From: Acidimicrobiia bacterium
Lineage (GTDB): Bacteria; Actinomycetota; Acidimicrobiia; Spongiisociales; ZC4RG35
Reading direction: 5' to 3'
NCBI GenBank assembly: GCA_025937235.1
Contig: JAICRU010000001.1
Coordinates: 7,516 to 71,515 of the forward strand
Length of the DNA stretch: 64,000 bases
The translations under genes and the position numbers were made by a program. The notes beneath the pieces are model-generated. The model did no database searches, had not been told where the DNA came from, and was given only the letters and a program-made list of their open reading frames with translations. Below are positions 4,519-47,585 of the stretch, piece after piece; within the stretch, counting starts at the first letter, position 1, and every line of letters starts with the position of its first letter.

Positions 4519-5343
4519 ATGGCAACCCTCGACGCCAAGAAGCGGGCCAGCCTCCCCAACAGTGCCTTCGCCTACATCGACTCCAAGGGCAATCGACGAC
4601 TGCCGATCAACGACGAGGCTCACGTCCGTAACGCCCTCTCGCGGTTCAATCAGGTCAAGTTCGAGAGCGACGAGGCGCGGGAGAAGGCGTTCCGGAGATT
4701 GCTCAAGGCCGCCACCGACTACGGGATCGCCCCGGTCGGATTCGTCACCCGCCGGTTGCGCGAGGCCTCGCAGTCGGGCTCCGCCGACCTGCCTACCGGG
4801 TTGGTCACCCTGCTCCTCACCGACATCGAGGCGTCGACCGGGCTGGTCCGAGAGTTGGGGGACGGGTACCCCGCGCTGCTCGCCGCGGTGCGGGACTTGA
4901 TCAGAAACGCGATCGGTGCCCACGGTGGATATGAGGTCGACGCCCGCGCCGACGAGTTCTTCGCCGCTCACGCGCGGGCCCGCGACGCCCTCGATGCCGC
5001 CATCGAGATCCAGAAGGGTTTGGAAGCGGAGTCCTGGCCGGGCGGGCGTCGCATCCGCGTTCGCATTGGCCTCCATAGCGGCAGCCCGTCGGTCACCGAC
5101 ACGGGCTATGTGGGCCTACCGGTTCATGTGATGGCGCGGGTGTGCAGCGCCGGGCACGGTGGCCAGATCCTGGTCAGTTCAGCCACCCGTGATGAGCTCG
5201 GCGAGCTTCCCATTCAAGTCAGCCTGGAGTCTCTCGGTGCTGTCTCACTTCACGGGATTCCCGAGCCAGAGGAGCTGTATCAGGTCGTGGCTCCGGGGCT
5301 GCAGCGTGACTTCCCCAGATTGCGAGTTGCCGAGACGGAGTGA
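4519..5343 (+). CDS. Class III adenylate/guanylate cyclase-domain protein with DUF6582-like N-terminal domain
   Basis: N-terminus LPNSAFAYIDSKGNRRLPINDEAHVRNALSRFNQVKF. The C-terminal ~190 aa has the cyclase pattern LLLTDIEASTGL...ADEFFAAH...RIGLHSG...GLPVHVMARV...GGQILVS. Confidence 0.75.
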   Translation: MATLDAKKRASLPNSAFAYIDSKGNRRLPINDEAHVRNALSRFNQVKFESDEAREKAFRRLLKAATDYGIAPVGFVTRRLREASQSGSADLPTGLVTLLLTDIEASTGLVRELGDGYPALLAAVRDLIRNAIGAHGGYEVDARADEFFAAHARARDALDAAIEIQKGLEAESWPGGRRIRVRIGLHSGSPSVTDTGYVGLPVHVMARVCSAGHGGQILVSSATRDELGELPIQVSLESLGAVSLHGIPEPEELYQVVAPGLQRDFPRLRVAETE

Positions 5344-5454
5344 CCCGGACCGCCGGCTATATGGCCCGCATACCGTTGTTGCGAGTGCAGCCGTCATCCT
5401 TCCCCTCTCGTCGAGGTCGAGCCTATCCCACCGGCATCCACACCCGCATGGTGG

Positions 5455-5997
5455 AAGGGCCGGGGCTACGGCGCGGCCCTCTCCATGATCCTGGCGCTGA
5501 TCATCCTCGGGTTCACGGTTGTCCAGATGATCCTGACCAGACGGAGCGAGCGATGACCGCCGTCTCTGTTCCGACGCAGACCGGGATCCTCGATCCGGAG
5601 CTCGGCCCTCCCGTCGGCACCCGTGAGCCGGGCCGGTCCTGGTCAGGCCGCACCAAGTATCTCCTGGGGGGGTGTCGATCGTCATCTGCGTCATGATGGT
5701 GACCCCGATCGTGCTCTCGATCTCGGCCTCGTTGAAGACCACCGAAGAGGCGGCCGCGGTGCCGCCGACCTATTTCCCGAGCGAGCCGAGCACGGACAAC
5801 TACCAGAAGCTCTGGGACTACGGGAGTAAAGGCTGCCTCGATACCTGGGCAACAGCATCATCACGGCGGCCCTGACTGTCGCCATGACCCTGGCCCTCGC
5901 CATCCCTGCCGGGTCCGGCCGGGCCCGGTTCCCCATACCGGGCAAGGAGGTGATCTTCGTCTTCTTGCCATGTCCGGGCTGCTCACCGGGGCGGTGA
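5455..5997 (+). pseudogene. Remnants of two carbohydrate-type ABC permease genes (3' stub of one; frameshifted, truncated second)
   Basis: 5464..5556 encodes only the C-terminal tail GYGAALSMILALIILGFTVVQMILTRRSER*. An ATGA-overlapped second gene (5553) then needs three frames to read MTAV... / ...VTPIVLSISASLKTTEEAAAVPPTYFPSEPSTDNYQKLWDYG / RYLGNSIITAALTVAMTLALAIPAG..RARFPIPGKEVIFVFL, and stops early. Confidence 0.65.
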
Positions 5998-6010
5998 AGT
6001 AGGGGGCTTC

Positions 6011-7093: not shown

Positions 7094-8893
7094 ATGACCG
7101 TAGCTCCCGGCACCGACCGCATCGGTGACGATCTCACCTTCAGCCACGAGGCGGACGGGATGAGGATCGACTACCAGGTGCCGGTGAAGATGGCCGATGG
7201 GGCGGTGCTGCGGGCGGATGTCTTCCGACCCGTCGCCAACGGCCGGTACCCGGTCATCCTCACTCACGGCGTCTATGCCAAAGGTCTCCCGTTCAACGGC
7301 CCGATCTACCAGATGCAGTGGGACAAGCTGGTGGCCAAGGACCCCAGCGTCCTCGAGGGATCGACCAACAGGTATCAGGCCTGGGAGGTCACCGACCCGG
7401 AGCGCTGGGTCCCCCACGGATATGCCCTGGCCCGTGTCGACTCGCGCGGCGCCGGCTGGTCGCCGGGATTGCTCTGGCCCCGCAACCCCCAGGAGTTCGA
7501 CGACATCGCCGATTCGGTCGAATGGGCGGGCATTCAGCCCTGGAGCAGCGGGCGGGTGGGGATCCTCGGCATCTCGTACTACGCAGTCATGGGCTGGGCC
7601 GCGGCCGAGCGCCAGCCCGAGCACCTGACTGCCTTGATCGCATGGGAGGGTTTCACGGACTCGTATCGCGACGCCTATTACCACGGCGGGATACTCAGCG
7701 AGTTCACCAAGCGTTGGCAGGAGCGCCAGATCAACCCGATCCAGTACGGCCAGGGCGATCGGGCGCCGGTCAACCCCAATACCGGCCAGTCCGTGGCCGG
7801 GCCGGTCACACTGTCCGAGGAGGAGCTGGAGGCCAATCGCAACGAGTCTTTCCCCGAGATAAAGGGTCACCCGTTGTTCGACGACTGGCACAGGGCACGC
7901 GCCGTCGACCTCTCCAAGGTTCAGATCCCGTTCCTGTCCGCCGCCAACTGGGGGGGACAGGGGATTCACCCCCGAGGCAACTTCAACGGATTCGTCCAGG
8001 CGAGCTCGGAGCAGAAATGGTTGGAGGCGCATGGCGACACCCACTGGACCCACTTCTATTCGTCCTACGGCCGAGATCTACAGAAGCGGTTCTTCGATCA
8101 CTTCCTGAAAGGTGAGGAGAACGGGTTCGACCGCACCCCGAGAGTGCAACTGAATGTCCGGCACCCGGGGGAGCACTTCGTCTGGCGTGGTGAGGACGAG
8201 TGGCCTTTGGCCAGGACGATCTGGTCCAAGTATCACCTGCAGGCGGATATGGGCCTGAGCGACGAGTCTGCCGAGGAGCAGGGCCGACTCGAATACGAGG
8301 CTCTGGGCGAGGGACTCCGCTTCACCACCGCCCCGTTCACGGCCCAGACCGAGATCACCGGGCCGCTGGCCGCCAAGCTCTTCGTCTCATCCACCACCAC
8401 CGACGCCGATGTCTTCCTCATCGTCCAGCTATTCGACCCAGATGGCGTGGAAGTGACCTTCGAGGGCTCGACCGACCCAAACACCCCGATCGCCAACGGC
8501 TGGCTGCGGGCCAGTCACCGCGCCCTCGACCCGGCACGCTCCCGGCCGTGGCAGCCGTTTCACCCGCACGACCGGGTCGAGCCACTCGAGCCGGGGGAGA
8601 CATACGAGCTCGACATCGAGATAGTCCCCACCTGCATCGTGGTTCCCGAGGGATATCGTCTGGTTCTCTGGGTGAGGGGACGTGACTACGAGTACCGCGG
8701 GCCCCTGGACGAATACGGTCAGAGCTTCTACTACGCCACCAGGGGCACAGGAGGGATGACCCATGCCGATCCCGACGACCGCCCGGAAGATGTCTTTGGT
8801 GGCAAGGTGACCATCCACGTCGGGCCGGAACACCCCTCTCACCTTCTTCTTCCCGTGGTACCCAGACGCCCCGGCGAGGAGGAGCAGAGATGA
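7094..8893 (+). CDS. CocE/NonD-family hydrolase (S15 X-Pro dipeptidyl-peptidase-like)
   Basis: PVILTHGVYAKG...YALARVDSRGAGWSPG...GISYYAVMGW (nucleophile elbow), followed by the family's long C-terminal beta-sandwich region. Confidence 0.85.
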   Translation: MTVAPGTDRIGDDLTFSHEADGMRIDYQVPVKMADGAVLRADVFRPVANGRYPVILTHGVYAKGLPFNGPIYQMQWDKLVAKDPSVLEGSTNRYQAWEVTDPERWVPHGYALARVDSRGAGWSPGLLWPRNPQEFDDIADSVEWAGIQPWSSGRVGILGISYYAVMGWAAAERQPEHLTALIAWEGFTDSYRDAYYHGGILSEFTKRWQERQINPIQYGQGDRAPVNPNTGQSVAGPVTLSEEELEANRNESFPEIKGHPLFDDWHRARAVDLSKVQIPFLSAANWGGQGIHPRGNFNGFVQASSEQKWLEAHGDTHWTHFYSSYGRDLQKRFFDHFLKGEENGFDRTPRVQLNVRHPGEHFVWRGEDEWPLARTIWSKYHLQADMGLSDESAEEQGRLEYEALGEGLRFTTAPFTAQTEITGPLAAKLFVSSTTTDADVFLIVQLFDPDGVEVTFEGSTDPNTPIANGWLRASHRALDPARSRPWQPFHPHDRVEPLEPGETYELDIEIVPTCIVVPEGYRLVLWVRGRDYEYRGPLDEYGQSFYYATRGTGGMTHADPDDRPEDVFGGKVTIHVGPEHPSHLLLPVVPRRPGEEEQR

Positions 8894-36423: not shown

Positions 36424-39400
36424 TCAGCTACAGCCCGTGGTGTCCCCGCAGGTGAGGCAGACATAGCACGAGCCGTTGCGGATGGTCATGTGGCCGCAGT
36501 TGGAGCACACCGGAGCGTCACCCATGTTCTCCCGCAGGGCCGAGTCGACCATGGCTGCCGACCCCGCCAGCACCGTGGCCTTCTCCTCGACCTGGATGGC
36601 AACGGCTTGGCCTGGATCGCTCGAGGGGGCATCCACGAATGCCGCAGCAACCCTCACCGCCTCCACGTCGGACTCGGCGGCGGCATCGGTGAGGTCGAGC
36701 TGGATGCCGGCGTCCACGGCCATGCCCGAGGGCGGCTCAGGGAGCTGCAGGTCGCGGTCCGGCGGCACCTGGGCGAGCTCGTCACGCTCCAGGTACTCCA
36801 CGCCGAGGGCCCGGAACACGTAGTCCACGATGGAGTTGGCCATCTTGATGTTGGGGTGGCCTTCCACCATGCCCCGTGGCTCGAAGGTCTGGAAGGTGAA
36901 AGTATCCACGAACTCCTCCAGCGGCACCCCGTATTGGAGACCCTTGGACACGGCGATGGCGAAGCAGGAGAGAATTCCCTTGAGGGTCGCCCCCTCCTTG
37001 GCCAGGTCGATGAAGATCTCACCAAGGGTCCCGTCGTCGTACTCGCCGGTACGGAGGAACACCTTGTGCCCGCCGATCCTCGCCTCCTGGTTGTACCCGT
37101 TGCGACGGGCGGGGAGCAGGAACCGCGGTGGTTTCATCCCCTGGTGGTAGGCCTGCGTCGGCGAGATCCCCGCGGGGAGGTTGCCCCAGTGGATCGCCTT
37201 CTCCGCCTCCAACGCGGCGGTGATCGCGGGCGCCTCGTCCTCATGGTCATCACCCTCGTCGGAGGTGGAATTGAGTGGCTGAGCCGCCTTCGACCCGTCC
37301 CGGTAGAGGGCCATCGCCTTGAGACCCCACTCCCACGACATCCGGTAGGACTCTTCGATGTCCTCCACCGTGATCTCATGGGGCATGTTGATCGTCTTGC
37401 TGATCGCCCCGGAGATGAATGGCTGCGCCGCCGCCATCATCTTGATGTGGCCGTAGTGGTGGATGAACCGCTCGCCGATCTTGCCGTTCTTGTTGGCCGT
37501 GTCGAAGACGGGGAGATGCTCATCCAAGAGGTGCGGGGCACCCTCGATGGTTTGCCGGCCGCAGATGTGATCGTTGGCCTCGTTGATCTCCTTCGAGGCG
37601 AACCCGAGCGCCTTGAGCAGGTTGAAGTCCCACCCGGTGTACTCGTCGACGCCAAAGCCGAGCCGTTGCAGGGTCTCCTCTCCGAAGGTGAACACGTTGA
37701 ATGCGTGCTTCAGCTCGAACACCGAGGGCAGCGTCTTGTCCAGCTTGGCCAGGTCTTCGTCGTCGAAGCCCTTGGCGGTGAGAGTCTCACGGTTGATGTG
37801 CGGCGCCCCGTCGATGGAGCTGGTGCCGACGATGTACTCGACGACATCCTTGATCTGGCTCTCGTCATAGCCCAGATTCCGCAACGCCGGGGCCACCGAC
37901 TGGTTGGCGATCTTGAAGTAGCCGCCACCGGCCAGCTTCTTGAACTTGACCAGGGCGAAGTCGGGCTCGACCCCGGTGGTGTCACAGTCCATCAAGAGGC
38001 CAATAGTTCCTGTTGGCGCGATCACACTGGATTGAGCGTTGCGATAGCCGTGCTGCTCACCCTGTTCGAGGGCGAGGTCCCACGATGTGCGGGCCGCGGC
38101 GAGGAAGTCGGCAGGGCACAGATCGGGATCGATAGCCATGACCTTGTGGCTGACCCCTTCGTAGTCGTTGTCGCCATAGGCGGCGCGGCGATGATTCCTG
38201 ATCACACGAAGCATCGCTTCTCGGTTCTCGGAGTAACGGGGGAAGGGCCCAACCACACCGGCCATCTCAGCCGAGGTGGCGTAGGAATATCCGGTGAGGA
38301 TGGCGGTCATCGCCCCACTGATGGCCCGGCCCTCGTCGGAGTCGTAGGCAATGCCTTGACGCATCAGCAGAGACCCGAGGTTGGCGTAGCCGAGACCGAG
38401 GGTCCGGTAGTCGTACGAGCCCTGGGCGATCTCCGGAGAGGGGAAATGAGCCATCGCCACCGAGATCTCCAACACGATGGTCCAGAGACGAACCGCGTGC
38501 TGGTACCCCGCGATGTCGAAGACACCGGTCTCGTCGTCGTAGAACCTGACAAGGTTGATCGAGGCCAGGTTGCACGCGGTGTCGTCGAGAAACATGTACT
38601 CACTGCAATTACTGGTAAGAATTCCCAGGGTGAGGTAGGAGTGGTTCTTGGGCTCGGTCAGGTTGTAGGTGGTTTCCCACCCGTCCTCACTTCGATCGTT
38701 GAGACGGACCCAGTGTCGAGTCCGGTACCTGGTCTTCTCGACAAGGACTTGGTGAAGGATGTCGTTCTTGATCGACAGCTCGAAACCGACAGACCCGAAG
38801 AGCCTTTCGACGTCCGACCCCATGATTCGCAAATCGTTGATCTCCGATCGGCCTCGGTAGCCCCGTGTCTCTCCGCCTTTGGTCGTGTATTCGAAAGTCG
38901 AGGCCTCGTGGCGCCGCGACGAGTAGATCGACGCGTGGATGCCGAAAGTGTCGAGTAGTTGCTGAACATCTCGGAGCAGCTCCTTCGAATCGCTGGCCAG
39001 CCCCACATACGTGGTCGTGTTGCCGTAGCGAACGCAACCGTCGGCGTCGTAGAGACCGCGGAGGAAGGCGGCGACGATCGGCTTGGGCGCCTCGAAGATC
39101 GACCACGGCACCCGCTTCTGGCCGGCCTTGGCCTGAGACACACCGAGCGCCTTCAGAAACCCGCTGAAGGCGGCTCGGCTGATGCGCAACTGGTAAGTGC
39201 CATTGCCCATGGCTACGGGCTTGGACGCAAAACCCCCGTTGATTTCTGCGAGCAACTCCCGATGCAGGATCATCGCGGTGTGCTGCTCTTCCTCCGAGCC
39301 GTACACGGTGACGACCGTGTCGTCGGTCATGCTGCCGTCGCCGACTAGCCAGCCCAAATAGTGGGCCATCTCCTCGGTCCACTTCTCGGGGAGTTTGACC

Positions 39401-40995
39401 TCATACCTGCGGCTCGACTTCCGCAGCATGTAACTGTCTGTGTTGGTCGACACCGGCATTGCCCACGAGGCCATGCCGAAATCGATCTCCTGGTCGAGAA
39501 GACGGATCTGGTCGGCCTCGCCGAGCTCGTCGGCGCGGACCCATCCCCGGTTTGCGGTCCAGAGCCGGTGGTTGGGAGTACAGCGAAGGACCCGACCGTC
39601 GGAGAACTCGAGACGGAGGATCTGGTTGGTGCCGGTGACCATGACCTGGCTGGGGGTGCTCAGGTCGATGGTCTCAGTGGGGTGGTCCGGGTTGGTGGCG
39701 TCATGCGTGTACACCTGGAACGACTCACCCTCGGCGACCCTCGTCACCAGCGACTTGAACGGGATCAGACCTCTATCCGTCGCCACTCGCATCTCGCCGG
39801 TGAAGCAGGGGTTGGAGCCGCGGATGCGTCCCCCCGCCGGGCTGGTGTGCCACTCGTTGACGGTGGTGTCGAACTGCAGACCCGGATCGGCGCAGGCCCA
39901 CGCCGCTTCGGCGATTTGGTTCCACAGGTCACGGGCTTTCACCGTCTTCCGTATGGAGCCGTCGGTGCGATTCTTCAACTCCCAGTCGTCGTCGTCGATG
40001 ACCGCCCTGATGAAGTCGTTGCTGACGCGTACCGAATTGTTCGAGTTCTGGCCGGACACGGTGGCGTAGGCATCGCCGTTGAAGTCGGAGGGCAGACCGC
40101 CATGGTTGATCAGGACCCGGGCTTTGTCCTCCTCGACCTTCTTCCAGTCGATGAACTTCTCGATGTCGGGATGGTCGACGTCGAGAATGACCATCTTGGC
40201 GGCCCGGCGGGTCGTGCCTCCGCTCTTAATCGCACCAGCGGCGCGGTCGCCGATCTTGAGAAAGGACATCACACCCGAGGACTTGCCGCCACCGGAGAGC
40301 CGCTCGTTCTCACCGCGGATATGGCTGAAGTTGGACCCGGCCCCGGAGCCGAATTTGAAGATGCGAGCCTCCCGGACCCAGAGATCCATGATGCCGCCCG
40401 GGTTCACCAGATCGTCCTTCACACCGAGGATGAAACAGGCGTGCGGGGCCGGCCGGCTGTAGGAGTCGGGGGAGGCCTCGAGCCGACCGTCGGTCCCGTC
40501 TACGAACCAGAAGCCCTGGGCGGGTCCGGTCAGCCCGTAGGCCCAGTTGAGGCCGGTGTTGAACCACTGCGGCGAGTTGGGGGCGGCCATCTGATTGGCG
40601 AGCATGTACTTGAGTTCGTCCTCGAAGGCATCGGCGTCGTCGGTCGTGGCGAAGTAACCCTCCTTCTCCCCCCAATGCCGCCAGGTGCCGGCCAGGCGGT
40701 CGAAGACCTGTCGTGCCGAGCGCTCCGGCCCGAGCACCGGCTCACCGTCATCACCCACCACCTGGTTGCCCTCGTCGTCGATCTGGGGCACACCGGCCTT
40801 GCGGAAGTACTTCGAGACCATGATGTCGGAGGCGACCTGCGACCACCCTGCAGGGATCTCGGCATCGGTCATCTCGAAGACGATGGACCCGTCGGGATTG
40901 TTGATCCGTGAGTCGCGTCGCGACCACTCGATCCGGTCGTACGCGTCCTTGCCGGCCTCGGTGAAGCGACGGGTGATCCGCAGGCCTTTGCTCAT
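36424..40995 (-). CDS. nrdJ: Adenosylcobalamin-dependent (class II) ribonucleotide reductase, intein-containing precursor
   Basis: Typical long NrdJ: ...ACFILGV..., ...GSGAGSNFSHIRGE..., SNP|C-SEYMFLDDTACNLASINL, ...ISKTINMP..., and a C-terminal Cys cluster CSNCGHMTIRNGSCYVCLTCG. Start at ATG 40995, 8 nt after GAGGAGG. 1523 aa including a 400-aa insert. Confidence 0.95.
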   Translation of the reverse strand: MSKGLRITRRFTEAGKDAYDRIEWSRRDSRINNPDGSIVFEMTDAEIPAGWSQVASDIMVSKYFRKAGVPQIDDEGNQVVGDDGEPVLGPERSARQVFDRLAGTWRHWGEKEGYFATTDDADAFEDELKYMLANQMAAPNSPQWFNTGLNWAYGLTGPAQGFWFVDGTDGRLEASPDSYSRPAPHACFILGVKDDLVNPGGIMDLWVREARIFKFGSGAGSNFSHIRGENERLSGGGKSSGVMSFLKIGDRAAGAIKSGGTTRRAAKMVILDVDHPDIEKFIDWKKVEEDKARVLINHGGLPSDFNGDAYATVSGQNSNNSVRVSNDFIRAVIDDDDWELKNRTDGSIRKTVKARDLWNQIAEAAWACADPGLQFDTTVNEWHTSPAGGRIRGSNPCFTGEMRVATDRGLIPFKSLVTRVAEGESFQVYTHDATNPDHPTETIDLSTPSQVMVTGTNQILRLEFSDGRVLRCTPNHRLWTANRGWVRADELGEADQIRLLDQEIDFGMASWAMPVSTNTDSYMLRKSSRRYEVKLPEKWTEEMAHYLGWLVGDGSMTDDTVVTVYGSEEEQHTAMILHRELLAEINGGFASKPVAMGNGTYQLRISRAAFSGFLKALGVSQAKAGQKRVPWSIFEAPKPIVAAFLRGLYDADGCVRYGNTTTYVGLASDSKELLRDVQQLLDTFGIHASIYSSRRHEASTFEYTTKGGETRGYRGRSEINDLRIMGSDVERLFGSVGFELSIKNDILHQVLVEKTRYRTRHWVRLNDRSEDGWETTYNLTEPKNHSYLTLGILTSNCSEYMFLDDTACNLASINLVRFYDDETGVFDIAGYQHAVRLWTIVLEISVAMAHFPSPEIAQGSYDYRTLGLGYANLGSLLMRQGIAYDSDEGRAISGAMTAILTGYSYATSAEMAGVVGPFPRYSENREAMLRVIRNHRRAAYGDNDYEGVSHKVMAIDPDLCPADFLAAARTSWDLALEQGEQHGYRNAQSSVIAPTGTIGLLMDCDTTGVEPDFALVKFKKLAGGGYFKIANQSVAPALRNLGYDESQIKDVVEYIVGTSSIDGAPHINRETLTAKGFDDEDLAKLDKTLPSVFELKHAFNVFTFGEETLQRLGFGVDEYTGWDFNLLKALGFASKEINEANDHICGRQTIEGAPHLLDEHLPVFDTANKNGKIGERFIHHYGHIKMMAAAQPFISGAISKTINMPHEITVEDIEESYRMSWEWGLKAMALYRDGSKAAQPLNSTSDEGDDHEDEAPAITAALEAEKAIHWGNLPAGISPTQAYHQGMKPPRFLLPARRNGYNQEARIGGHKVFLRTGEYDDGTLGEIFIDLAKEGATLKGILSCFAIAVSKGLQYGVPLEEFVDTFTFQTFEPRGMVEGHPNIKMANSIVDYVFRALGVEYLERDELAQVPPDRDLQLPEPPSGMAVDAGIQLDLTDAAAESDVEAVRVAAAFVDAPSSDPGQAVAIQVEEKATVLAGSAAMVDSALRENMGDAPVCSNCGHMTIRNGSCYVCLTCGDTTGCS
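38608..39807 (-). mobile_element. Intein (400 aa) with LAGLIDADG homing-endonuclease domain inside nrdJ
   Basis: The insert starts with Cys (CFTGEMRV) and has block B CTPNH and two dodecapeptide motifs, LGWLVGDGS and FLRGLYDADG. It ends ...GILTSN and is followed by Cys+1 of CSEY. Removal restores the conserved SNPCSEY. Confidence 0.9.
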
Positions 40996-41088
40996 GAAAC
41001 GTGCCTCCTCGCACTGGGGACGCCTCGCCGGGCAGATGGCGGGGCGGTGTCCAAACCCTCTCGGGTGTTCATCTGATTTGCCAACCGA

Positions 41089-41135
41089 CCACAAGATGTT
41101 GTGGTTGAAGGGGAAGCGACCACGACATCTGGTAT
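41089..41135 (-). promoter_or_regulatory. Tandem NrdR boxes upstream of nrdJ
   Basis: CCACAAGATGTTGTGG (41089..41104; 14 of 16 positions symmetric) and CCACGACATCTGGTAT (41120..41135). Centres are 31 bp apart, between the predicted -10 and the nrdJ start. Confidence 0.7.
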
Positions 41136-41145
41136 GGACTTCAAT

Positions 41146-41174
41146 ACTGTAATTACACATGTGTCACGGGTCAA
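41146..41174 (-). promoter_or_regulatory. Sigma70-like promoter for nrdJ
   Basis: Minus strand reads TTGACC (41174..41169), 17-nt spacer, TACAGT (41151..41146), in a locally AT-rich patch immediately upstream of the NrdR boxes. Confidence 0.55.
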
Positions 41175-41435
41175 GTGTTTCGTATTCCACGGGCCCCGAC
41201 CGGCTCAGAGCGCGAAAATCACCGCTGTCAGGGGAAGTGCGGTGTCCCGGCCACGCTCCGGGAAGCGGCCGCACCCTAGGGTCGGGCGGCGTCACCGAGA
41301 CGGGCGATCGGCTCCACACATTTCGCGGTCCAATCTCGGTCAGCTCCGAGACGTCGTCGCTGCGTGCGTCGCAGACGCTCATCCATCATCGGTTTCGGTG
41401 ACGTGCCCTAACGGGTAAAACGTTGATGGGACCCT

Positions 41436-42212
41436 ATGCAATTTGCCTCGTTCGACGTGTCCGCGCCGGATCCGGTGATCGCCACCGCGGTCCACAACGG
41501 CCATGAGCTGCGCCCGGAACTGGCCATGGTGTCCGCATTGGACGGGCACAGCCGCCTTCGTGAGGAAGACCCTCACACCGGGATTGTTGCTCATCGATTC
41601 GCCAACAATGTGGTGGTCCATCGTTCCCGATTCGAGATCGACCTCAACCGGGAGCGGGACCATGCGGTCTACCTCACTGCCGACGATGCCTGGGGGTTGG
41701 AGGTGTGGCGGAGGCCACTCGAAAAGGAGGAGATTGCCGGGTCCCTGCACCTGTACGACCGGTTCTACGCCGATCTGGCGGCAGCCCTCGACGGATTGGT
41801 TGCCGACAACGGTGGATTCGTCTTGTACGACATCCACTCCTACAACCACGTCCGTTCCGGGCCAGGCGGCGAGCCTGACCCGGCCGAGGAGAGCCCGATA
41901 GTCAACCTCGGCACCGGCTCGCTCCCGGAGCGATGGAAGGCCGTCGCCGACGCATTCGTGGAAAGCGCCCGGGAGTCGACCCTCGACGGGACCAGGCTCG
42001 ACGTCAGGGAGAATGTCCGCTTCGAAGGCCGGCAGGTGGCGGCCTGGGTCCACGGGAGATATGGCGACGTCGGCTGCGCACTCGCCATCGAGTTGAAGAA
42101 GGTCTTCATGGACGAATGGTCGGGTGAAGTCGACCTCCAGCGGCTGGAGAAGCTGGGGGCCGCCCTTCTCGACACCGCCGAACCGGTCCGGCGAGCCTGG
42201 AGGGGCTCGTGA
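41436..42212 (+). CDS. N-formylglutamate amidohydrolase (FGase) family protein
   Basis: 258 aa: ...TAVHNGHELRPE..., ...EEDPHTG..., ...HRSRFEIDLNRE... and ...YDIHSYNH... fit the FGase/HutG-like family pattern. Confidence 0.7.
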   Translation: MQFASFDVSAPDPVIATAVHNGHELRPELAMVSALDGHSRLREEDPHTGIVAHRFANNVVVHRSRFEIDLNRERDHAVYLTADDAWGLEVWRRPLEKEEIAGSLHLYDRFYADLAAALDGLVADNGGFVLYDIHSYNHVRSGPGGEPDPAEESPIVNLGTGSLPERWKAVADAFVESARESTLDGTRLDVRENVRFEGRQVAAWVHGRYGDVGCALAIELKKVFMDEWSGEVDLQRLEKLGAALLDTAEPVRRAWRGS

Positions 42213-43363
42213 GCGTCAGTGATGTCGATCTGGCCCTGGATCGCCGCCTCAGCGAGGTATCCGGCCTGCTTCCGATGCTCCAACTACTGACACCCATCAA
42301 TGTCACCGAGCAGAAGAAGGCCTTCTTCGAGCGAAAGGTCGCCGAGCCCGAGTTCGCCTATCGCGACCTCCCCGACCTCGCCCCCCTCGGAGATGAATTG
42401 GCGGCGATCAACCCCGAGGAAGCCACCGACCCGGTCCTGGTGCACATGATCAGGGGCATGCACCGTGAGCTGGAGCGGCGGATCGAGCTGCTCGCGGCCC
42501 GGAACACGGACCGGTTCCTCCTCGCCGCCGTCGAGAAATGGGGACATGTCGATCAGACCCTCATCGAACTGGCCGAACGGGTCCTCGAGGATGTCCCCCC
42601 CGGGCCCCCTGCCGACGAATATGTCCATGCCCACGAGCTGGCCGGCATGGCCACCATCGAGCTGGATCACTACCGAAAGGCCTTCCCGGAGCTGGCCACC
42701 CTGGTCCATGTGAGCGAGCTGGTCGCCGGGGTGATGGTGGAGAACGGAGATCTCTTCATAAGCACCGAGGCCTCCATCTCCGCGGATCGGGTCCCGCAGT
42801 TGCTCCACCATGAGATCGGGGTCCACGTCCTCACGTTCGTGAACGGCAGCGTCCAGCCGATCCGTATGCTCTCGCTCGGCCTGGACGGATACGAGGAGAC
42901 TCAGGAGGCGCTGGGAGTACTCGCCGAGTATCTCGGTGGTGGTCTTCGACCCAAGCGACTGAGGGCCTTCGCCCAGCGGGTGATGGCCGCCCAATCGGTG
43001 AGCCGCCGCGATAGCTTCGCCCAGACCTTCGAGCTCATGATGTCTCTCGGCGCCGGCCGAAACCGAGCTTTCAACACCACCATGCGGGCTCACCGATCTG
43101 GAGGCATGACCAAGGACGCCCTATATCTCGGCGGGACCACCCGGCTGCTCGCCTTCATCCGGGAGGGTGGCGACCTCGATTCTCTGCTCGTTGGGAAGAT
43201 CTCATTGGCCGACCAGCCTTTGGTCCTTGACCTCCTCGAACGCAATGTCCTCGTCGAGCCCCCGCTCCGTCCCCGCTTCCTCGACTCGGATCAGGCTTCC
43301 GAGCGGCTGGCGAGGATCGAAGATGGCGCCGACGTCCTCGAACTGGTAGGCATTGCGGCATGA
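42209..43363 (+). CDS. DUF1704 / MATCAP-like putative metallocarboxypeptidase ('QEGLA motif' family)
   Basis: HExxH zinc motif in LLHHEIGVHVLT and a QEGLA-like segment GYEETQEALGVLAEY. GTGA overlap with the FGase gene. Confidence 0.7.
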   Translation: MSVSDVDLALDRRLSEVSGLLPMLQLLTPINVTEQKKAFFERKVAEPEFAYRDLPDLAPLGDELAAINPEEATDPVLVHMIRGMHRELERRIELLAARNTDRFLLAAVEKWGHVDQTLIELAERVLEDVPPGPPADEYVHAHELAGMATIELDHYRKAFPELATLVHVSELVAGVMVENGDLFISTEASISADRVPQLLHHEIGVHVLTFVNGSVQPIRMLSLGLDGYEETQEALGVLAEYLGGGLRPKRLRAFAQRVMAAQSVSRRDSFAQTFELMMSLGAGRNRAFNTTMRAHRSGGMTKDALYLGGTTRLLAFIREGGDLDSLLVGKISLADQPLVLDLLERNVLVEPPLRPRFLDSDQASERLARIEDGADVLELVGIAA

Positions 43364-44406
43364 GACTGGGGCTGGTAGTGAACGATGTGGCGACGGAGAG
43401 GCCGGAGTACAGCACCACCCGTCTCGCCCTTGCCGCGCGGAAGCGGGGCCACGAAGTCTGGCTGATGGGGGTAGGGGACCTAGCCCACTCCGCTTTGGGT
43501 CAGGTCACGGCGCGGGCGAGGACAGCCCAGGACAAGACGTACCGATCGTTGAAGAACTTCTTGGAGGACGTCCAGAGCGAGGAGGTCGAGCCCGAGACCA
43601 TCGTGGTCGATGACCTCGACATCTTGATGCTGAGGAACGACCCATCGGACGACGCCATCGACCGGCCCTGGGCACAGACCTCGGGGGTCCTCTTCGGCCA
43701 GCTCGCCGCAGCGGCCGGTGTGCTCGTGGTGAACGACCCGAGTCACCTGGCCAACGCCATCAACAAGACGTACTTCCAGCACTTCCCCGAGGAGGCAAGG
43801 CCCCGAACTCTCATCTCCCGCACCGAGGACGACATCAAGAGCTTCGTCGCCGAGCTGGGTGGTCGGGCCGTGCTCAAGCCGCTGCAGGGATCGGGGGGCC
43901 AAGGAGTCTTCCTGGTCACGGGCAAGAAGGGCCAGAACCTGAACCAGATCATCGAGACGATCGCGCGGGACGGCTATGTGGTGGTTCAGGAGTTCCTACG
44001 TGATGCGGAGAAAGGGGACATCCGTCTCTTCGTGATGAACGGCCACCCGCTCGAGATAGACGGGAAGGTCGCCGCGTTCCGTCGAGTCAACGAAGCAGAC
44101 GACGTCCGCTCCAACATGCATGTGGGCGGCAAGGCCGAGAAGGTCAAGATCACCGACGAGATACTCCGTGTCGTGCACCTGGCACGGCCCAAGTTGATCG
44201 AGGACGGCATGTTCCTGGTGGGTCTCGACATCGTTGGGGACAAGATGATGGAGGCGAACGTGTTCAGCCCGGGCGGCCTCGGCAGCGCCGGCGCCATCCA
44301 CGAGGTCGACTTCGCCGGCGCCGTTATCGAGGCACTGGAGCGAAAGCTGGAGATCAGGGCCAGCTACGGCCCGTCCCTCTCCAACGCCGCCCTGGCCACG
44401 ATGTAG
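43360..44406 (+). CDS. ATP-grasp ligase, glutathione synthetase (GshB)/RimK-like
   Basis: ...ILMLRNDP..., ...VLKPLQGSGGQGVF..., ...VVVQEFL...GDIRLFVMNG..., ...RSNMHVGG... and ...LVGLDIVGDKMMEANVFSPGG... follow the prokaryotic GshB pattern. ATGA overlap with the upstream gene. Confidence 0.8.
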   Translation: MRLGLVVNDVATERPEYSTTRLALAARKRGHEVWLMGVGDLAHSALGQVTARARTAQDKTYRSLKNFLEDVQSEEVEPETIVVDDLDILMLRNDPSDDAIDRPWAQTSGVLFGQLAAAAGVLVVNDPSHLANAINKTYFQHFPEEARPRTLISRTEDDIKSFVAELGGRAVLKPLQGSGGQGVFLVTGKKGQNLNQIIETIARDGYVVVQEFLRDAEKGDIRLFVMNGHPLEIDGKVAAFRRVNEADDVRSNMHVGGKAEKVKITDEILRVVHLARPKLIEDGMFLVGLDIVGDKMMEANVFSPGGLGSAGAIHEVDFAGAVIEALERKLEIRASYGPSLSNAALATM

Positions 44407-44477: not shown

Positions 44478-47400
44478 CTAGACCGGCACCGCGGATGCCT
44501 CGAGCACCATGGCGGCGGCGTCGAAGGGGTTCATCTGGCGTCCGTTGTGACGGGCAGCCTGGAGAGCGGGGTCTTGCAGGGAGTCGGCCATCGAGGAGAG
44601 GGCGTCGAACAGCCACATGATCAGCGGCCAGGGATGGAGCCCGATTCTCTCTCGCACGTCTTCGGCAGCCCCGAGAGCGATCATGCCCAGCTCTGCCTGG
44701 CCCTCGGTGAAGGAGAGTGACGCAGTGGCCTCGAGGGCGTAACACAGACCCTCGCGGTAGTTCATCTCCCTGAACACCTGGAACGATCGACGAAGGGCTT
44801 CCCGGGCCTGAGTCATCCGGCCGGTGGAGATGTAGGTGAAGCCCAATTGGGCTTCGGACAGTCCGATCAGTGCCCCATTGCCCAGCTCGAGCCCGATCTC
44901 ACGGGTGGCCAGCTGGAAGCCCTCTGCCGCTTCGGTGTCACCACTGGATCCGGCCAGGATGCCGAGGGCGATCAGGGCGTAACCCTCACCCCAGCGGTCT
45001 CCGAATCCCCGGAAGCGGCTGAGGGCGACATCGAGCCTCCTCTTCACCTCCGATGGATCGTCACCAGAGACCGGCAGGAGGAGGGCGGAGACGAAATCCG
45101 ACCAGTTGTGACTGTCGATGTCCCCGTTGTCCTCGACAATGGGCAGGGCCAAATCGATCGATTCCTTCGCCTGCACGTATTCGCCCATCTCGTAATGGAT
45201 CCCGCCCCGGAGAAACCAATACCGGCCGGCGAGAAGACCGTCGAGCTTCTCCGGCGACGTGACCGCGGCGAGATAGCGGGCCCCGTCCCGGAGATGGTTG
45301 CCTATCCAGAGATAGACCCACAGGCCGTGCGTCATCCTCACCAGCGAGTCGAAGGCGCCCCGCTCCACCAGCCAGTCGGCGGCCACGTCGATGTTGTTCC
45401 AGTCGGCGGCCAGCCGTTCCACTGTCTCTTTCTGCTTGGGGCCGCGCAGATCCTCGAGAGATGCTTCCGCCAGGCGGACGTAGTAGTCGGCATGACGATC
45501 TTTCACTCGGTCGTGCTCGCCGGATTCGATCAATCTGCGGAGACCGAACTCCCGGATCGGTGCCAGCATGCGCAGCCTGCCGTCGCCGCCTTGCGCCGGT
45601 AGGACCAGGCTGTTCTCGACCAGGACCATGAGTTGGTCGACGACGTCACCCTCCTCGACCGCGACCTCCTGAGCCGATTCCACCGTGAATCCGCCCAGAA
45701 AGACACAGAGCCGGCAGAAAAGGGTCTGTTCCTCCCGGGTCAGGAGTTGGTAGCTCCAGTCGATGGCGGCGTCGAGGGTCTTCTGCCGGCCGGGAACGTC
45801 GGCCGCCCCCGTGCCAAGCGCATCGAGAGACCGAGTGAGACGCTCGGAGAGGGCCTTGGGGCTCAGCATTCGCAGACGGGCCGCGGCGAGCTCGATGGCC
45901 AGTGGCAGCCCGTCGACCTTGCTCACGATCGATGCCACCGGGGAGGCGTTCTCCTCGTCGATCGAGAACCCGGGTATCACCGAAAGGGCCCGATCCAAGA
46001 AAAGTCGGACCGCCGCCGACGCCGAGATGGACTCGATCTGCTCCGAACCGACGGGTGGCAGGCTCAACGGCTCGAGGGTGTACTCGTATTCGCTCATGAT
46101 GCGGAGTGGGACGCGACTGGTCACGAGCACCTTCAAGCCCGGGCTGCGCCCGAGGAGGTCGGCTACTGCCGATCCGCCCTCGACCACCTGTTCGAAATTG
46201 TCGATCACGAGGAGCACCTGTTGATCCTGGAACTCGCCGGAGAGGGCATCGAGCGGCTCTCCCTCGATGGGGATCCCGGCCGCGGTGCCGATGGCGAGCA
46301 AGACCTGGGAAGGGTCGGTGATCGGCGCCAGGTTCACGAAGTAGACCCCGTCGGGGAATGAGGTCGCCGCCTCCTGGGCGACGGAAAGGGCGAGTCGTGT
46401 CTTGCCCACGCCACCGGCGCCGACGATGGTGGTCAGACGGACCTCGGGCCGTCCCAACATCTCCAGGAGCTCGGATAGCTCCTTGTCCCGCCCCACAAGG
46501 TTGTTCTGCGGGGCGGGAAGACGTATCCGGCTCGTGGAACGGGCCCGGGGGAGGGGGAACTCCGCCCTGAGCCCGGGGGCGACGACCTGGAAGAGCTTCT
46601 CCGCCCGGGAGAGGCCCTTCAGCGCATATGAACCGAGCTCGCGCAGCTCCCACCCGGCGTCGGCGACCTGAGCTTCGACCAGTTCCCGGACCGGGGCCGA
46701 GACGATGATCTGGCCGCCGTGGGCCGAGGAGGACACCCGTGAGGCGCGATGCACGTCGAGGCCGACATAGCCCCCGGACCCGATCCGGGCAGTCCCGGTG
46801 TGGAGCCCGAGACGGGCCAGGACCGGAAGCGAGCGAGGCCACTCGGCGCTGCCGAGCTCGCTCTGGATCTGCACGGTCGCGCTCACCGCCTGGAAGGGGT
46901 CGGTGAACACGGAGAAGAGCCGTTCACCTTCCAGGTCGACCACGGTGCCCCCATGCTGGAGCGTGGCTCCGGCGACCACGCCGTGATAGCCGGCGAGGAC
47001 CCGGGCGTATTCGTCACCCAGCTGTTCCACAAGTGAGGTGGAACCAGCCAGGTCGCCGAACATGAACGTCAGGGTCCCCATGGGAAGTGAGCTGGGCGCG
47101 GGCTCGATAGCGGCGAACCCCTCGGCCATGACCACGGCGAGGTCGTCCACGAGCAGCTCGGCCAGCTCGCCTGGCGACTCGAAGGACCTGATCGACATCC
47201 GCCCTTCGGCCCGAATCCGCTCGAGGAGCCGGCTCAGACCCGTCTCGCGCTCTGTGGCCGGCTCCTTGACGTAGACCAGCCCGGGGAGACCGGCGCCTCG
47301 GTCGTAGTCCCGTTCCAGATCGGAATGGTCGTCCCCCGACCAGCCGAGCGTCTGCCAGTAGATGCCGACGAAGATGTCCGCGTCCTCGAGGGTGGGCCCG

Positions 47401-47585
47401 TTCTGACTCGGGCGTGACCCCAGATCTACCCCGGCGGGTCGGAGACGAAGGGTCTTGACCGCCGATTGGGCGGCCTCACGCTCCGAATTGAGCTCGCCGA
47501 GATTCGACGAGATGTAGACGGTCAGCCTGGAGTCGAAGCCAACACTGCCGGCATCCACGCCGGCCCCCTCCCAGAGCGCACTCAC
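44478..47585 (-). CDS. Multidomain STAND protein: DUF4062-like N-domain, class III cyclase domain, NB-ARC/AAA P-loop NTPase, TPR array
   Basis: N-terminus LTVYISSNLGELNSEREAA...DADIFVGIYW. Cyclase domain LTFMFGDLAGSTSL...RLGLHTG...GLDVHRASRV...GGQIIVS. P-loop VGAGGVGKTRLAL with Walker B VLLVIDNFEQV. C-terminal ~400 aa of TPR-like helices. Confidence 0.85.
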   Translation of the reverse strand: MSALWEGAGVDAGSVGFDSRLTVYISSNLGELNSEREAAQSAVKTLRLRPAGVDLGSRPSQNGPTLEDADIFVGIYWQTLGWSGDDHSDLERDYDRGAGLPGLVYVKEPATERETGLSRLLERIRAEGRMSIRSFESPGELAELLVDDLAVVMAEGFAAIEPAPSSLPMGTLTFMFGDLAGSTSLVEQLGDEYARVLAGYHGVVAGATLQHGGTVVDLEGERLFSVFTDPFQAVSATVQIQSELGSAEWPRSLPVLARLGLHTGTARIGSGGYVGLDVHRASRVSSSAHGGQIIVSAPVRELVEAQVADAGWELRELGSYALKGLSRAEKLFQVVAPGLRAEFPLPRARSTSRIRLPAPQNNLVGRDKELSELLEMLGRPEVRLTTIVGAGGVGKTRLALSVAQEAATSFPDGVYFVNLAPITDPSQVLLAIGTAAGIPIEGEPLDALSGEFQDQQVLLVIDNFEQVVEGGSAVADLLGRSPGLKVLVTSRVPLRIMSEYEYTLEPLSLPPVGSEQIESISASAAVRLFLDRALSVIPGFSIDEENASPVASIVSKVDGLPLAIELAAARLRMLSPKALSERLTRSLDALGTGAADVPGRQKTLDAAIDWSYQLLTREEQTLFCRLCVFLGGFTVESAQEVAVEEGDVVDQLMVLVENSLVLPAQGGDGRLRMLAPIREFGLRRLIESGEHDRVKDRHADYYVRLAEASLEDLRGPKQKETVERLAADWNNIDVAADWLVERGAFDSLVRMTHGLWVYLWIGNHLRDGARYLAAVTSPEKLDGLLAGRYWFLRGGIHYEMGEYVQAKESIDLALPIVEDNGDIDSHNWSDFVSALLLPVSGDDPSEVKRRLDVALSRFRGFGDRWGEGYALIALGILAGSSGDTEAAEGFQLATREIGLELGNGALIGLSEAQLGFTYISTGRMTQAREALRRSFQVFREMNYREGLCYALEATASLSFTEGQAELGMIALGAAEDVRERIGLHPWPLIMWLFDALSSMADSLQDPALQAARHNGRQMNPFDAAAMVLEASAVPV

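Follow-up and report, generated by a model that had tools for sequence, protein, structure and literature searches.

A conserved bacterial module couples a GshB-type ATP-grasp ligase with a MATCAP-family gluzincin and an FGase-fold hydrolase

Glutathione synthetase GshB joins glycine to γ-Glu-Cys, chemically an N-acyl amino acid, at its C-terminal carboxylate, and FGase hydrolyses an N-acyl amino acid. In the N-acetylaspartylglutamate (NAAG) cycle an ATP-grasp ligase (RIMKLA/B) and two zinc hydrolases (glutamate carboxypeptidase II and aspartoacylase) act on a small acidic N-acyl dipeptide, VanA, VanX and VanY provide a precedent for swapping a C-terminal residue, and the rimABK operon of Pseudomonas holds a writer and a tail-trimming eraser together. 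In the tubulin code, the activities of the carboxypeptidases TMCP1/2 have been described (PMC10499314). Here, we analyse three adjoining genes in a 64,000-nt stretch (the window) of an Acidimicrobiia metagenome-assembled genome (MAG; GCA_025937235.1, contig JAICRU010000001.1, forward-strand positions 7,516 to 71,515): g1, encoding an FGase-fold hydrolase, g2, a MATCAP/DUF1704 gluzincin, and g3, an ATP-grasp ligase. The trio is a conserved module across phyla. Each of its proteins comes from a known family and the genes have already been annotated piecewise (NCBI entries HEU4917348-50, ‘N-formylglutamate amidohydrolase’, ‘tyrosine/phenylalanine carboxypeptidase domain-containing protein’ and ‘glutathione synthetase’), while the functional unit that they form is uncharacterised; literature searches returned no functional study of the bacterial module, only incidental table entries.

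An exhaustive search of 1.84 billion representative proteins identified 2163 relatives of g2, the best of which are mostly 600–650 residues in length and end in the MATCAP domain. Scanning the Genome Taxonomy Database (GTDB), with one genome for each species, gave at least 587 g2 relatives, and the best 80 were kept as loci (L003–L082), in which neighbouring genes were counted by local phmmer searches of six-frame open reading frames (ORFs). These loci represent about 14 phyla and come from Actinomycetota, Chloroflexota, Bacteroidota, Ignavibacteriota, Calditrichota, Gemmatimonadota, Planctomycetota, Acidobacteriota, Gammaproteobacteria, Campylobacterota, Myxococcota, Thermodesulfobacteriota and Dadabacteria; rhizobial megaplasmids add the Alphaproteobacteria. 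A ligase of the g3 type lies directly 3′ of the MATCAP-like gene in 77 of the 80 loci and elsewhere within the locus in the remaining three, and an FGase of the g1 type is present in 65 of the 74 loci that have enough upstream flank. Pairwise identities of the three proteins co-vary (Spearman 0.53–0.68), with medians of 47% for g1, 43% for g2 and 56% for g3, the ligase being the most conserved. Flanking genes vary even among relatives at 93%, 73%, 60% and 52% identity. All-against-all clustering of flank ORFs returned the three genes, shadow frames and generic families and no fourth conserved gene, and across 82 loci no small ORF beside the module is conserved beyond genus level, the only cases being shadow ORFs in Pontibacter.

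The operon stands isolated in the window, with a divergent ribonucleotide reductase (RNR) gene upstream and a convergent STAND/cyclase/TPR gene downstream (Table 1). A preliminary description, made from the letters alone, had read three genes joined by GTGA and ATGA overlaps, assigned them to the FGase, MATCAP/DUF1704 and GshB-like ATP-grasp families and noted that the leader offers no obvious precursor-peptide ORF. The overlaps lie where it placed them, profile searches agree with all three assignments, the triad that it proposed to follow in other genomes is kept across the phyla listed above, and alignment shows every catalytic residue of g1, g2 and g3 in place. A GGAGG sequence (42199–42203) precedes the GTG codon of g2 by 5 nt, and this start is credible because the N-termini of homologues align at the same residue. 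Homologues of g2 and g3 share the 4-nt start/stop overlap in 50 out of 81 loci, spanning many phyla, as counted by a nearest-start-codon heuristic that may favour overlapping starts, and the coupling of this pair exceeds chance. The leader shared by g1 and the RNR gene matches no Rfam family, its small ORFs are at chance level only, and its single promoter-like match faces the RNR gene. In relatives at 93% and 73% identity other genes end or start 25–32 nt upstream of g1, hence the leader is not a conserved part of the module; a riboswitch or leader peptide was considered and rejected on the blank Rfam result and this lack of conservation. The same observations bear on whether the trio matures a ribosomally synthesised and post-translationally modified peptide (RiPP) of the graspetide/microviridin type, or serves anti-phage defence. 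ATP-grasp and peptidase pairs do occur in RiPP clusters and a STAND/cyclase gene does adjoin the module, yet the leader and flanks are not conserved, no small ORF accompanies the module beyond genus level, g1, g2 and g3 match none of the PADLOC defence-system models, and a search of 2.9 million viral contigs gave one marginal match, making either role hardly credible.

Table 1. Coordinates of the module, its motifs and neighbouring features (positions in the window unless another locus is named).
Feature	Position	Strand	Description
g1	41436..42212	+	258 aa, ATG start; FGase-fold (M14-like) zinc amidohydrolase
GTGA overlap g1/g2	42209..42212	+	g2 GTG (42209-42211) over g1 stop TGA (42210-42212); reads ctcGTGAgc
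g2	42209..43363	+	384 aa, GTG start; MATCAP/DUF1704 gluzincin, predicted metallocarboxypeptidase, short form
HExxxH zinc/catalytic motif of g2 (H201, E202, H206)	42809..42826	+	lies in HHEIGVH; aligns with human MATCAP HEIGTH
Q232-E233 of QE(A/G)L motif, g2	42902..42907	+	E233 aligns with second Glu of human MATCAP TEEGLA
ATGA overlap g2/g3	43360..43363	+	g3 ATG over g2 stop TGA; reads ggcATGAga
g3	43360..44406	+	348 aa, ATG start; ATP-grasp ligase of PRK12458 (NF009110) subfamily
D290...E298-x-N300 segment of g3	44227..44259	+	at least 95% conserved (80 members); equivalent to GshB D273, E281, N283
Intergenic leader	41161..41435		275 nt, common to g1 and divergent class II RNR gene
Class II (B12-dependent) RNR with intein	36424-41160	-	1578 aa
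STAND-type protein	44478-47585	-	1035 aa; DUF4062, adenylate/guanylate cyclase domain, AAA_16/NB-ARC, TPR repeats
Vibrionaceae-type locus	L090 5974-9001 (Photobacterium sp. GJ3)		ligase passes NF009110, 480 bits

Two gene architectures predominate. In Actinomycetota, including the window, the order is FGase, short MATCAP, ligase, and in most other phyla the MATCAP protein carries a fused N-terminal domain of about 245 residues, FGase and ligase keeping their places on either side. This N-domain, seen in L016, L019, L020, L025 and about 40 other loci (roughly positions 5250–6000), goes unrecognised by Pfam; an hhalign comparison with the g1 family gave a probability of 92% (E 5e-7), the histidine of the DIHS motif being replaced (LEVW). 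It is a degenerate FGase-like domain, apparently without the catalytic His, and could be a pseudoenzyme serving to bind substrate or to dock the FGase. Direct FGase-MATCAP fusions also occur, in three representative proteins (P0121, P0137 and P0161) and in Vibrionaceae, where the order is reversed and the ligase is followed by a 660–665-residue FGase-MATCAP fusion with both active sites intact: in the Photobacterium protein the FGase domain keeps H20, EED, D69-x-NR, DIHSYNH and E219-x-KK, and the MATCAP domain keeps its catalytic residues. Such Rosetta-stone fusions imply that the two hydrolases share one substrate or act in consecutive steps. The Vibrionaceae variant (L090; P. damselae RS17015-RS17025) is preceded by a DUF413/MaoP gene and a divergent LysR regulator. 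Other local departures include two tandem ligase paralogues in a Gemmatimonadota MAG (L048 3118-5266), a tandem repeat of the fused MATCAP gene and ligase in a Planctomycetota MAG (L054 117-5880) and two tandem FGase copies in Tessaracoccus antarcticus (L073 4369-5977). In L004 (7152-8196) the ligase homologue is frameshifted into overlapping frames 7152-7574 and 7552-8196, reflecting either a pseudogene or a MAG assembly error. Two distant gammaproteobacterial QEGLA proteins at 26–32% identity, from Vibrio sp. HDW18 (L086) and Pseudoalteromonas sp. JSTW (L087), have no adjacent ligase; the latter gene adjoins a redoxin gene and lies near an AbgT (p-aminobenzoyl-glutamate) transporter.

The ligase has been annotated as glutathione synthetase, and its resemblance to GshB is considerable. 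Pfam recognises GSH-S_ATP (8e-47), GSH-S_N (3.4e-13) and RimK (2.3e-18) in g3, which aligns with E. coli GshB (1gsa) at E 2e-34 and about 30% identity and more weakly with RimK structures and models (E 1e-11 to 1e-14). The complete two-domain architecture of GshB is present, including the R233/N235/GG loop, and R92, K136, K173, R222, R242, R250, N252, D290, E298 and N300 of g3 correspond to GshB R86, K125, K160, R210, R225, R233, N235, D273, E281 and N283, two of which (E281 and N283) bind Mg2+. All alignable GshB catalytic residues are kept across 80 members of the g3 family. If g3 were the organism's glutathione synthetase, with the hydrolases as unrelated neighbours or glutathione-degrading enzymes, the annotation and these residues would be accounted for. 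Against this, g3 falls short of both GshB equivalog models (NF003573, 206.4 bits against a cut-off of 272; TIGR01380, 190.2 bits against 299.05), and also of the RimK model TIGR00768 (91.5 bits, cut-off 143.4), and passes NF009110 (443.7 bits, cut-off 408) over positions 1–348 of 349. Module ligases of Sinorhizobium (495 bits), Photobacterium (480) and Psychromonas (410) pass the same model, and module-type ligases of Actinomycetota and rhizobia (Alphaproteobacteria) share 45–52% identity with one another and about 30% with canonical GshB. The two types coexist in Sinorhizobium sp. K101, which encodes a canonical GshB on its main replicon (NF003573, 459.4 bits; TIGR01380, 415.8 bits) and the module ligase on a pSymB-like replicon, the latter scoring 212 and 208 bits with the GshB models. 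Failure at both equivalog cut-offs and coexistence with canonical GshB in strain K101 together argue that g3 is a paralogue of glutathione synthetase and not GshB itself, as judged from sequence, and the outcome that the preliminary description had named as fatal to its proposal, g3 as the sole bona fide GshB, is contradicted. No gshA-like gene was found among the 16 neighbouring proteins scanned, Actinomycetota and Bacteroidota generally lack glutathione, a gshB mutant of S. meliloti is reported to lack it as well, which would mean that the paralogue on pSymB cannot stand in for GshB, and in V. vulnificus the VV2_1203/VV2_1204 pair is listed among clade-specific accessory genes. We therefore regard a role in glutathione synthesis as very improbable; as a statement of function, the ‘glutathione synthetase’ label is probably wrong.

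The assignment of g2 to Pfam MATCAP (PF08014) is unequivocal, with an E-value of 3e-71 and 240.8 bits against a cut-off of 27, residues 38–370 covering positions 2–360 of the 365-position profile. It stays below the cut-off of TIGR02421 (270.8 bits, 338.65 required), its motif being QEALG, not QEGLA. The preliminary description was right to read TQEALGV as a variant of that motif (Q232, E233), though the zinc motif that it called HExxH is HExxxH, the spacing typical of MATCAP. H201, E202, H206, Q232 and E233 show no variation, either among 33 diverse homologues or at 86 loci, and the Glu of MATCAP equivalent to E233 is the third zinc ligand. While a PDB search with the single g2 sequence reached human MATCAP (7z5g) only at E 0.12, so that a profile was needed, a profile built from the 33 homologues matches it at E 1.5e-18, with three motifs in register (HEvGtH and HEIGTH; QEGLA and EEGLA; GGlTKDaiYLrG and GCFSKDQVYLDG). 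The AlphaFold2 model of g2 (pLDDT 90.7) led Foldseek to M32 carboxypeptidases and ACE2-type gluzincins; MATCAP is absent from the top 50 Foldseek matches, which we take as a prefilter miss because the profile does match MATCAP. Exopeptidase action by g2 is a prediction drawn from the likeness of this modelled fold to M32 carboxypeptidases alone.

The first gene of the operon passes the Pfam FGase model (PF05013; 7.6e-23, 82.2 bits, cut-off 28.9). No NCBIfam family matches g1 at E ≤ 0.01, so it is not an equivalog of HutG, and no hut genes occur among the neighbours scanned. A single-sequence PDB search returned nothing and structure prediction was needed for a fold match: with the AlphaFold2 model of g1 (pLDDT 89.3) Foldseek found 2q7s and 2odf at TM-scores of 0.66–0.74 and E 1e-10, and M14 carboxypeptidases at greater distance. 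H20, E43, E44, D45, R65, E67, D69, N71, R72, D132, H134, R140, E219 and K222 are at least 98% conserved over 63 loci that cover many phyla. Comparison with M14 enzymes suggests that they would supply the metal ligands, a catalytic Glu and, through the Asn-Arg pair, a clamp for a carboxylate. Both g1 and g2 hold many invariant Arg and Lys residues, which suggest an anionic substrate and would fit a poly-carboxylate, Glu-rich one.

What might three such enzymes do together? We propose a cytoplasmic cycle that would build and dismantle, or edit at its C-terminus, a small acidic N-acyl or γ-glutamyl peptide, and that would not be glutathione biosynthesis; we give this a probability of roughly 45%. 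In such a cycle the acceptor of g3 would be an N-acylated or γ-glutamyl amino acid or a short acidic peptide; the enzyme would spend ATP to turn the acceptor's free C-terminal carboxylate into an acyl phosphate and would then join one amino acid to it (N-acyl-aa + aa2 + ATP → N-acyl-aa-aa2). As a carboxypeptidase, g2 would strip the C-terminal residue from the same scaffold (N-acyl-aa-aa2 → N-acyl-aa + aa2), and g1 would cleave the N-acyl bond that remains (N-acyl-aa → acid + aa). The N-acyl amino acid would be the shared intermediate, released by g2 and accepted by both g3 and g1, and the module would either build and dismantle a peptide, as in the NAAG cycle, or exchange its C-terminal residue in the manner of VanA/VanX/VanY. 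The direction and order of these reactions, like the choice of a small-molecule substrate, are what we infer from family chemistry, and the writer/eraser cycle that the preliminary description had suggested is retained here as a putative arrangement on the same footing. Fusion of the two hydrolases fits consecutive degradative steps.

Several observations weigh against this proposal. The only characterised enzymes of the MATCAP family act on protein tails, those of tubulin, and a protein is likewise the target in the sister ATP-grasp family RimK. Coupled translation of a ligase and the carboxypeptidase that would reverse it looks futile unless the pair is regulated or handles different residues. 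Nine of the 74 loci lack the FGase, reducing the core to ligase and carboxypeptidase, and some distant QEGLA proteins stand alone without any ligase. As to futility, the NAAG cycle and the Van enzymes are precedents by which a trio of ligase and hydrolases need not be futile.

In an alternative, the substrate would be the C-terminal tail of a specific cellular protein. Like RimK on ribosomal protein S6 or TTL on tubulin, g3 would add one or more residues to it, g2 would trim them in the manner of MATCAP, and g1 would remove a differently linked residue. True homology between g2 and the tubulin carboxypeptidase MATCAP, the scores of g3 with RimK models and the pairing of writer and eraser in rimABK speak for it, and the missing neighbouring substrate gene is not decisive, as the target of RimK is not encoded beside rimK either. 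Yet g3, which has a full GSH-S_N domain, is far closer to GshB than to RimK, the known substrates of FGase-family enzymes are all small N-acyl amino acids, and no candidate target is conserved near the module. Because the ligase is of full GshB type and the FGase family handles small N-acyl amino acids, the evidence leans to a small metabolite over a protein C-terminus, and we consider tail editing possible but unlikely. A bolder version of the idea, in which the module performs reversible C-terminal protein tagging as a prokaryotic counterpart of tubulin-code chemistry, is the evolutionary source of MATCAP and serves an osmotic or nitrosative response, strikes us as quite unlikely; the MATCAP analogy tells nothing about tyrosine or tubulin in bacteria.

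The 2009 ATP-grasp survey of Iyer et al. may describe this neighbourhood. The only expression lead on the role of the module is induction at low salinity in Photobacterium. In P. damselae the ligase gene RS17020 is up 38-fold, and the overlapping FGase-MATCAP fusion gene RS17025 27.5-fold, at 1% versus 3% NaCl; both rank among the top induced genes, and across RS17015-RS17025 the response to low salinity ranges from 9- to 38-fold. The ligase was taken in that study to be the glutathione synthetase GshB (PMC10308900). This low-salt induction accompanies polyamine genes, an association that would suit a further alternative, in which the module salvages, remodels or catabolises an existing Glu-containing compound of the cell or its environment, the hydrolases stripping residues and the ligase re-capping or re-routing the product. 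Candidate compounds are peptidoglycan stem peptides with γ-D-Glu bonds, the oligo-glutamate tails of folate or other cofactors, and osmolyte dipeptides. RimK-family ligases such as MptN and CofF cap cofactor tails, and MptN and CofF models do match g3, albeit weakly; both hydrolases have carboxypeptidase-like folds, and their invariant basic residues would be equally at home with a poly-carboxylate of this sort. Purely catabolic routes, however, seldom employ ATP-grasp ligases, the module has no conserved neighbour that encodes a transporter or a cell-wall function, and it occurs in phyla of very different envelopes and cofactors, all of which renders salvage improbable.

The family owes its name ‘flavohemoglobin expression-modulating’ to PA3697 of P. 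aeruginosa, for which an effect on fhp is cited (PMC8070244). On a Shinella sp. plasmid (L083 4451-13128) the module adjoins an IS30 transposase, a Crp/Fnr regulator, nirK and nnrS, denitrification and NO-response neighbours that are curious in view of the family name, although their presence may be coincidence. In the window itself, the divergent RNR gene encodes a Ribonuc_red_lgC domain split over residues 241–1127, LAGLIDADG_3, Intein_splicing and TSCPD, the intein carrying a LAGLIDADG homing-endonuclease domain; the RNR of the relative L089 has only 1133 residues and the intein is likely absent there. The STAND-type protein is weakly similar to the Pycsar cyclase PycC (PADLOC E 1.7e-5), and a similar gene lies 3′ of the module in the close relatives L088 and L089, probably through local synteny only.

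What the window carries is an ordinary member of an orphan system that is widespread and bears on the origin of MATCAP. At least 587 species-level matches carry a MATCAP-like relative, which among the best 80 of them is almost always coupled to the ligase, and the labels of the three families are scattered over ‘N-formylglutamate amidohydrolase’, ‘tyrosine/phenylalanine carboxypeptidase domain protein’ or ‘flavohemoglobin expression-modulating QEGLA protein’, and ‘glutathione synthetase’. This last label can mislead reconstruction of glutathione pathways in phyla without glutathione, and it has already led astray the interpretation of an RNA-seq study (PMC10308900). Once found, the substrate would assign a function to bacterial DUF1704 and NF009110 and would show what role MATCAP-type enzymes had before their use on tubulin in eukaryotes; it might also reveal a hitherto undescribed peptide metabolite of small size, or such a modification of protein tails, with a link to osmotic adaptation.

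Comparison with the described systems shows where each likeness ends. MATCAP/TMCP1 and g2 belong to a common family and share the HExxxH...E zinc site and the GG-TKD-YL-G motif, at about 20% identity to the human protein, whose microtubule-binding extensions g2 lacks. The enzyme classes of the tubulin code (TTL, MATCAP and the CCP deglutamylases) are mirrored in the module by an ATP-grasp ligase, a MATCAP carboxypeptidase and an M14-fold hydrolase, but the ligase is of GshB type and not TTL/TTLL, the M14-like enzyme is of FGase type and not CCP, and no tubulin-like substrate is implied. With HutG (2q7s, 2odf), g1 shares the fold (TM-score about 0.7) and the Pfam family, at 16–17% identity to the solved structures; without an NCBIfam equivalog match or hut genes nearby, and unlike HutG, it forms a tightly conserved orthologous group that is always linked to the module. 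RimK is, as g3 is predicted to be, a bacterial ATP-grasp ligase of C-terminal amino acids, and g3 gives weak matches to RimK models and structures, but compared with rimABK the putative eraser of the module is a gluzincin and not a retropepsin-like protease, and an FGase-fold hydrolase is added. The NAAG cycle and the Van enzymes offer an analogy of logic only, their hydrolases being of the M28, AstE/AspA and M15 types, and no homology-based link to them was found. E. coli GshB has the same GSH-S_N plus GSH-S_ATP fold as g3, and its catalytic and loop residues are kept there, implying by analogy a chemistry in which an N-acylated amino acid would be extended at its C-terminal carboxylate by another amino acid. 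In contrast to GshB, g3 carries N-domain insertions (around residues 45–75 and 100–105) and a C-terminal extension, and ligases of its type, which a genome can hold in addition to canonical GshB, are always linked to a peptidase of the MATCAP-like kind.

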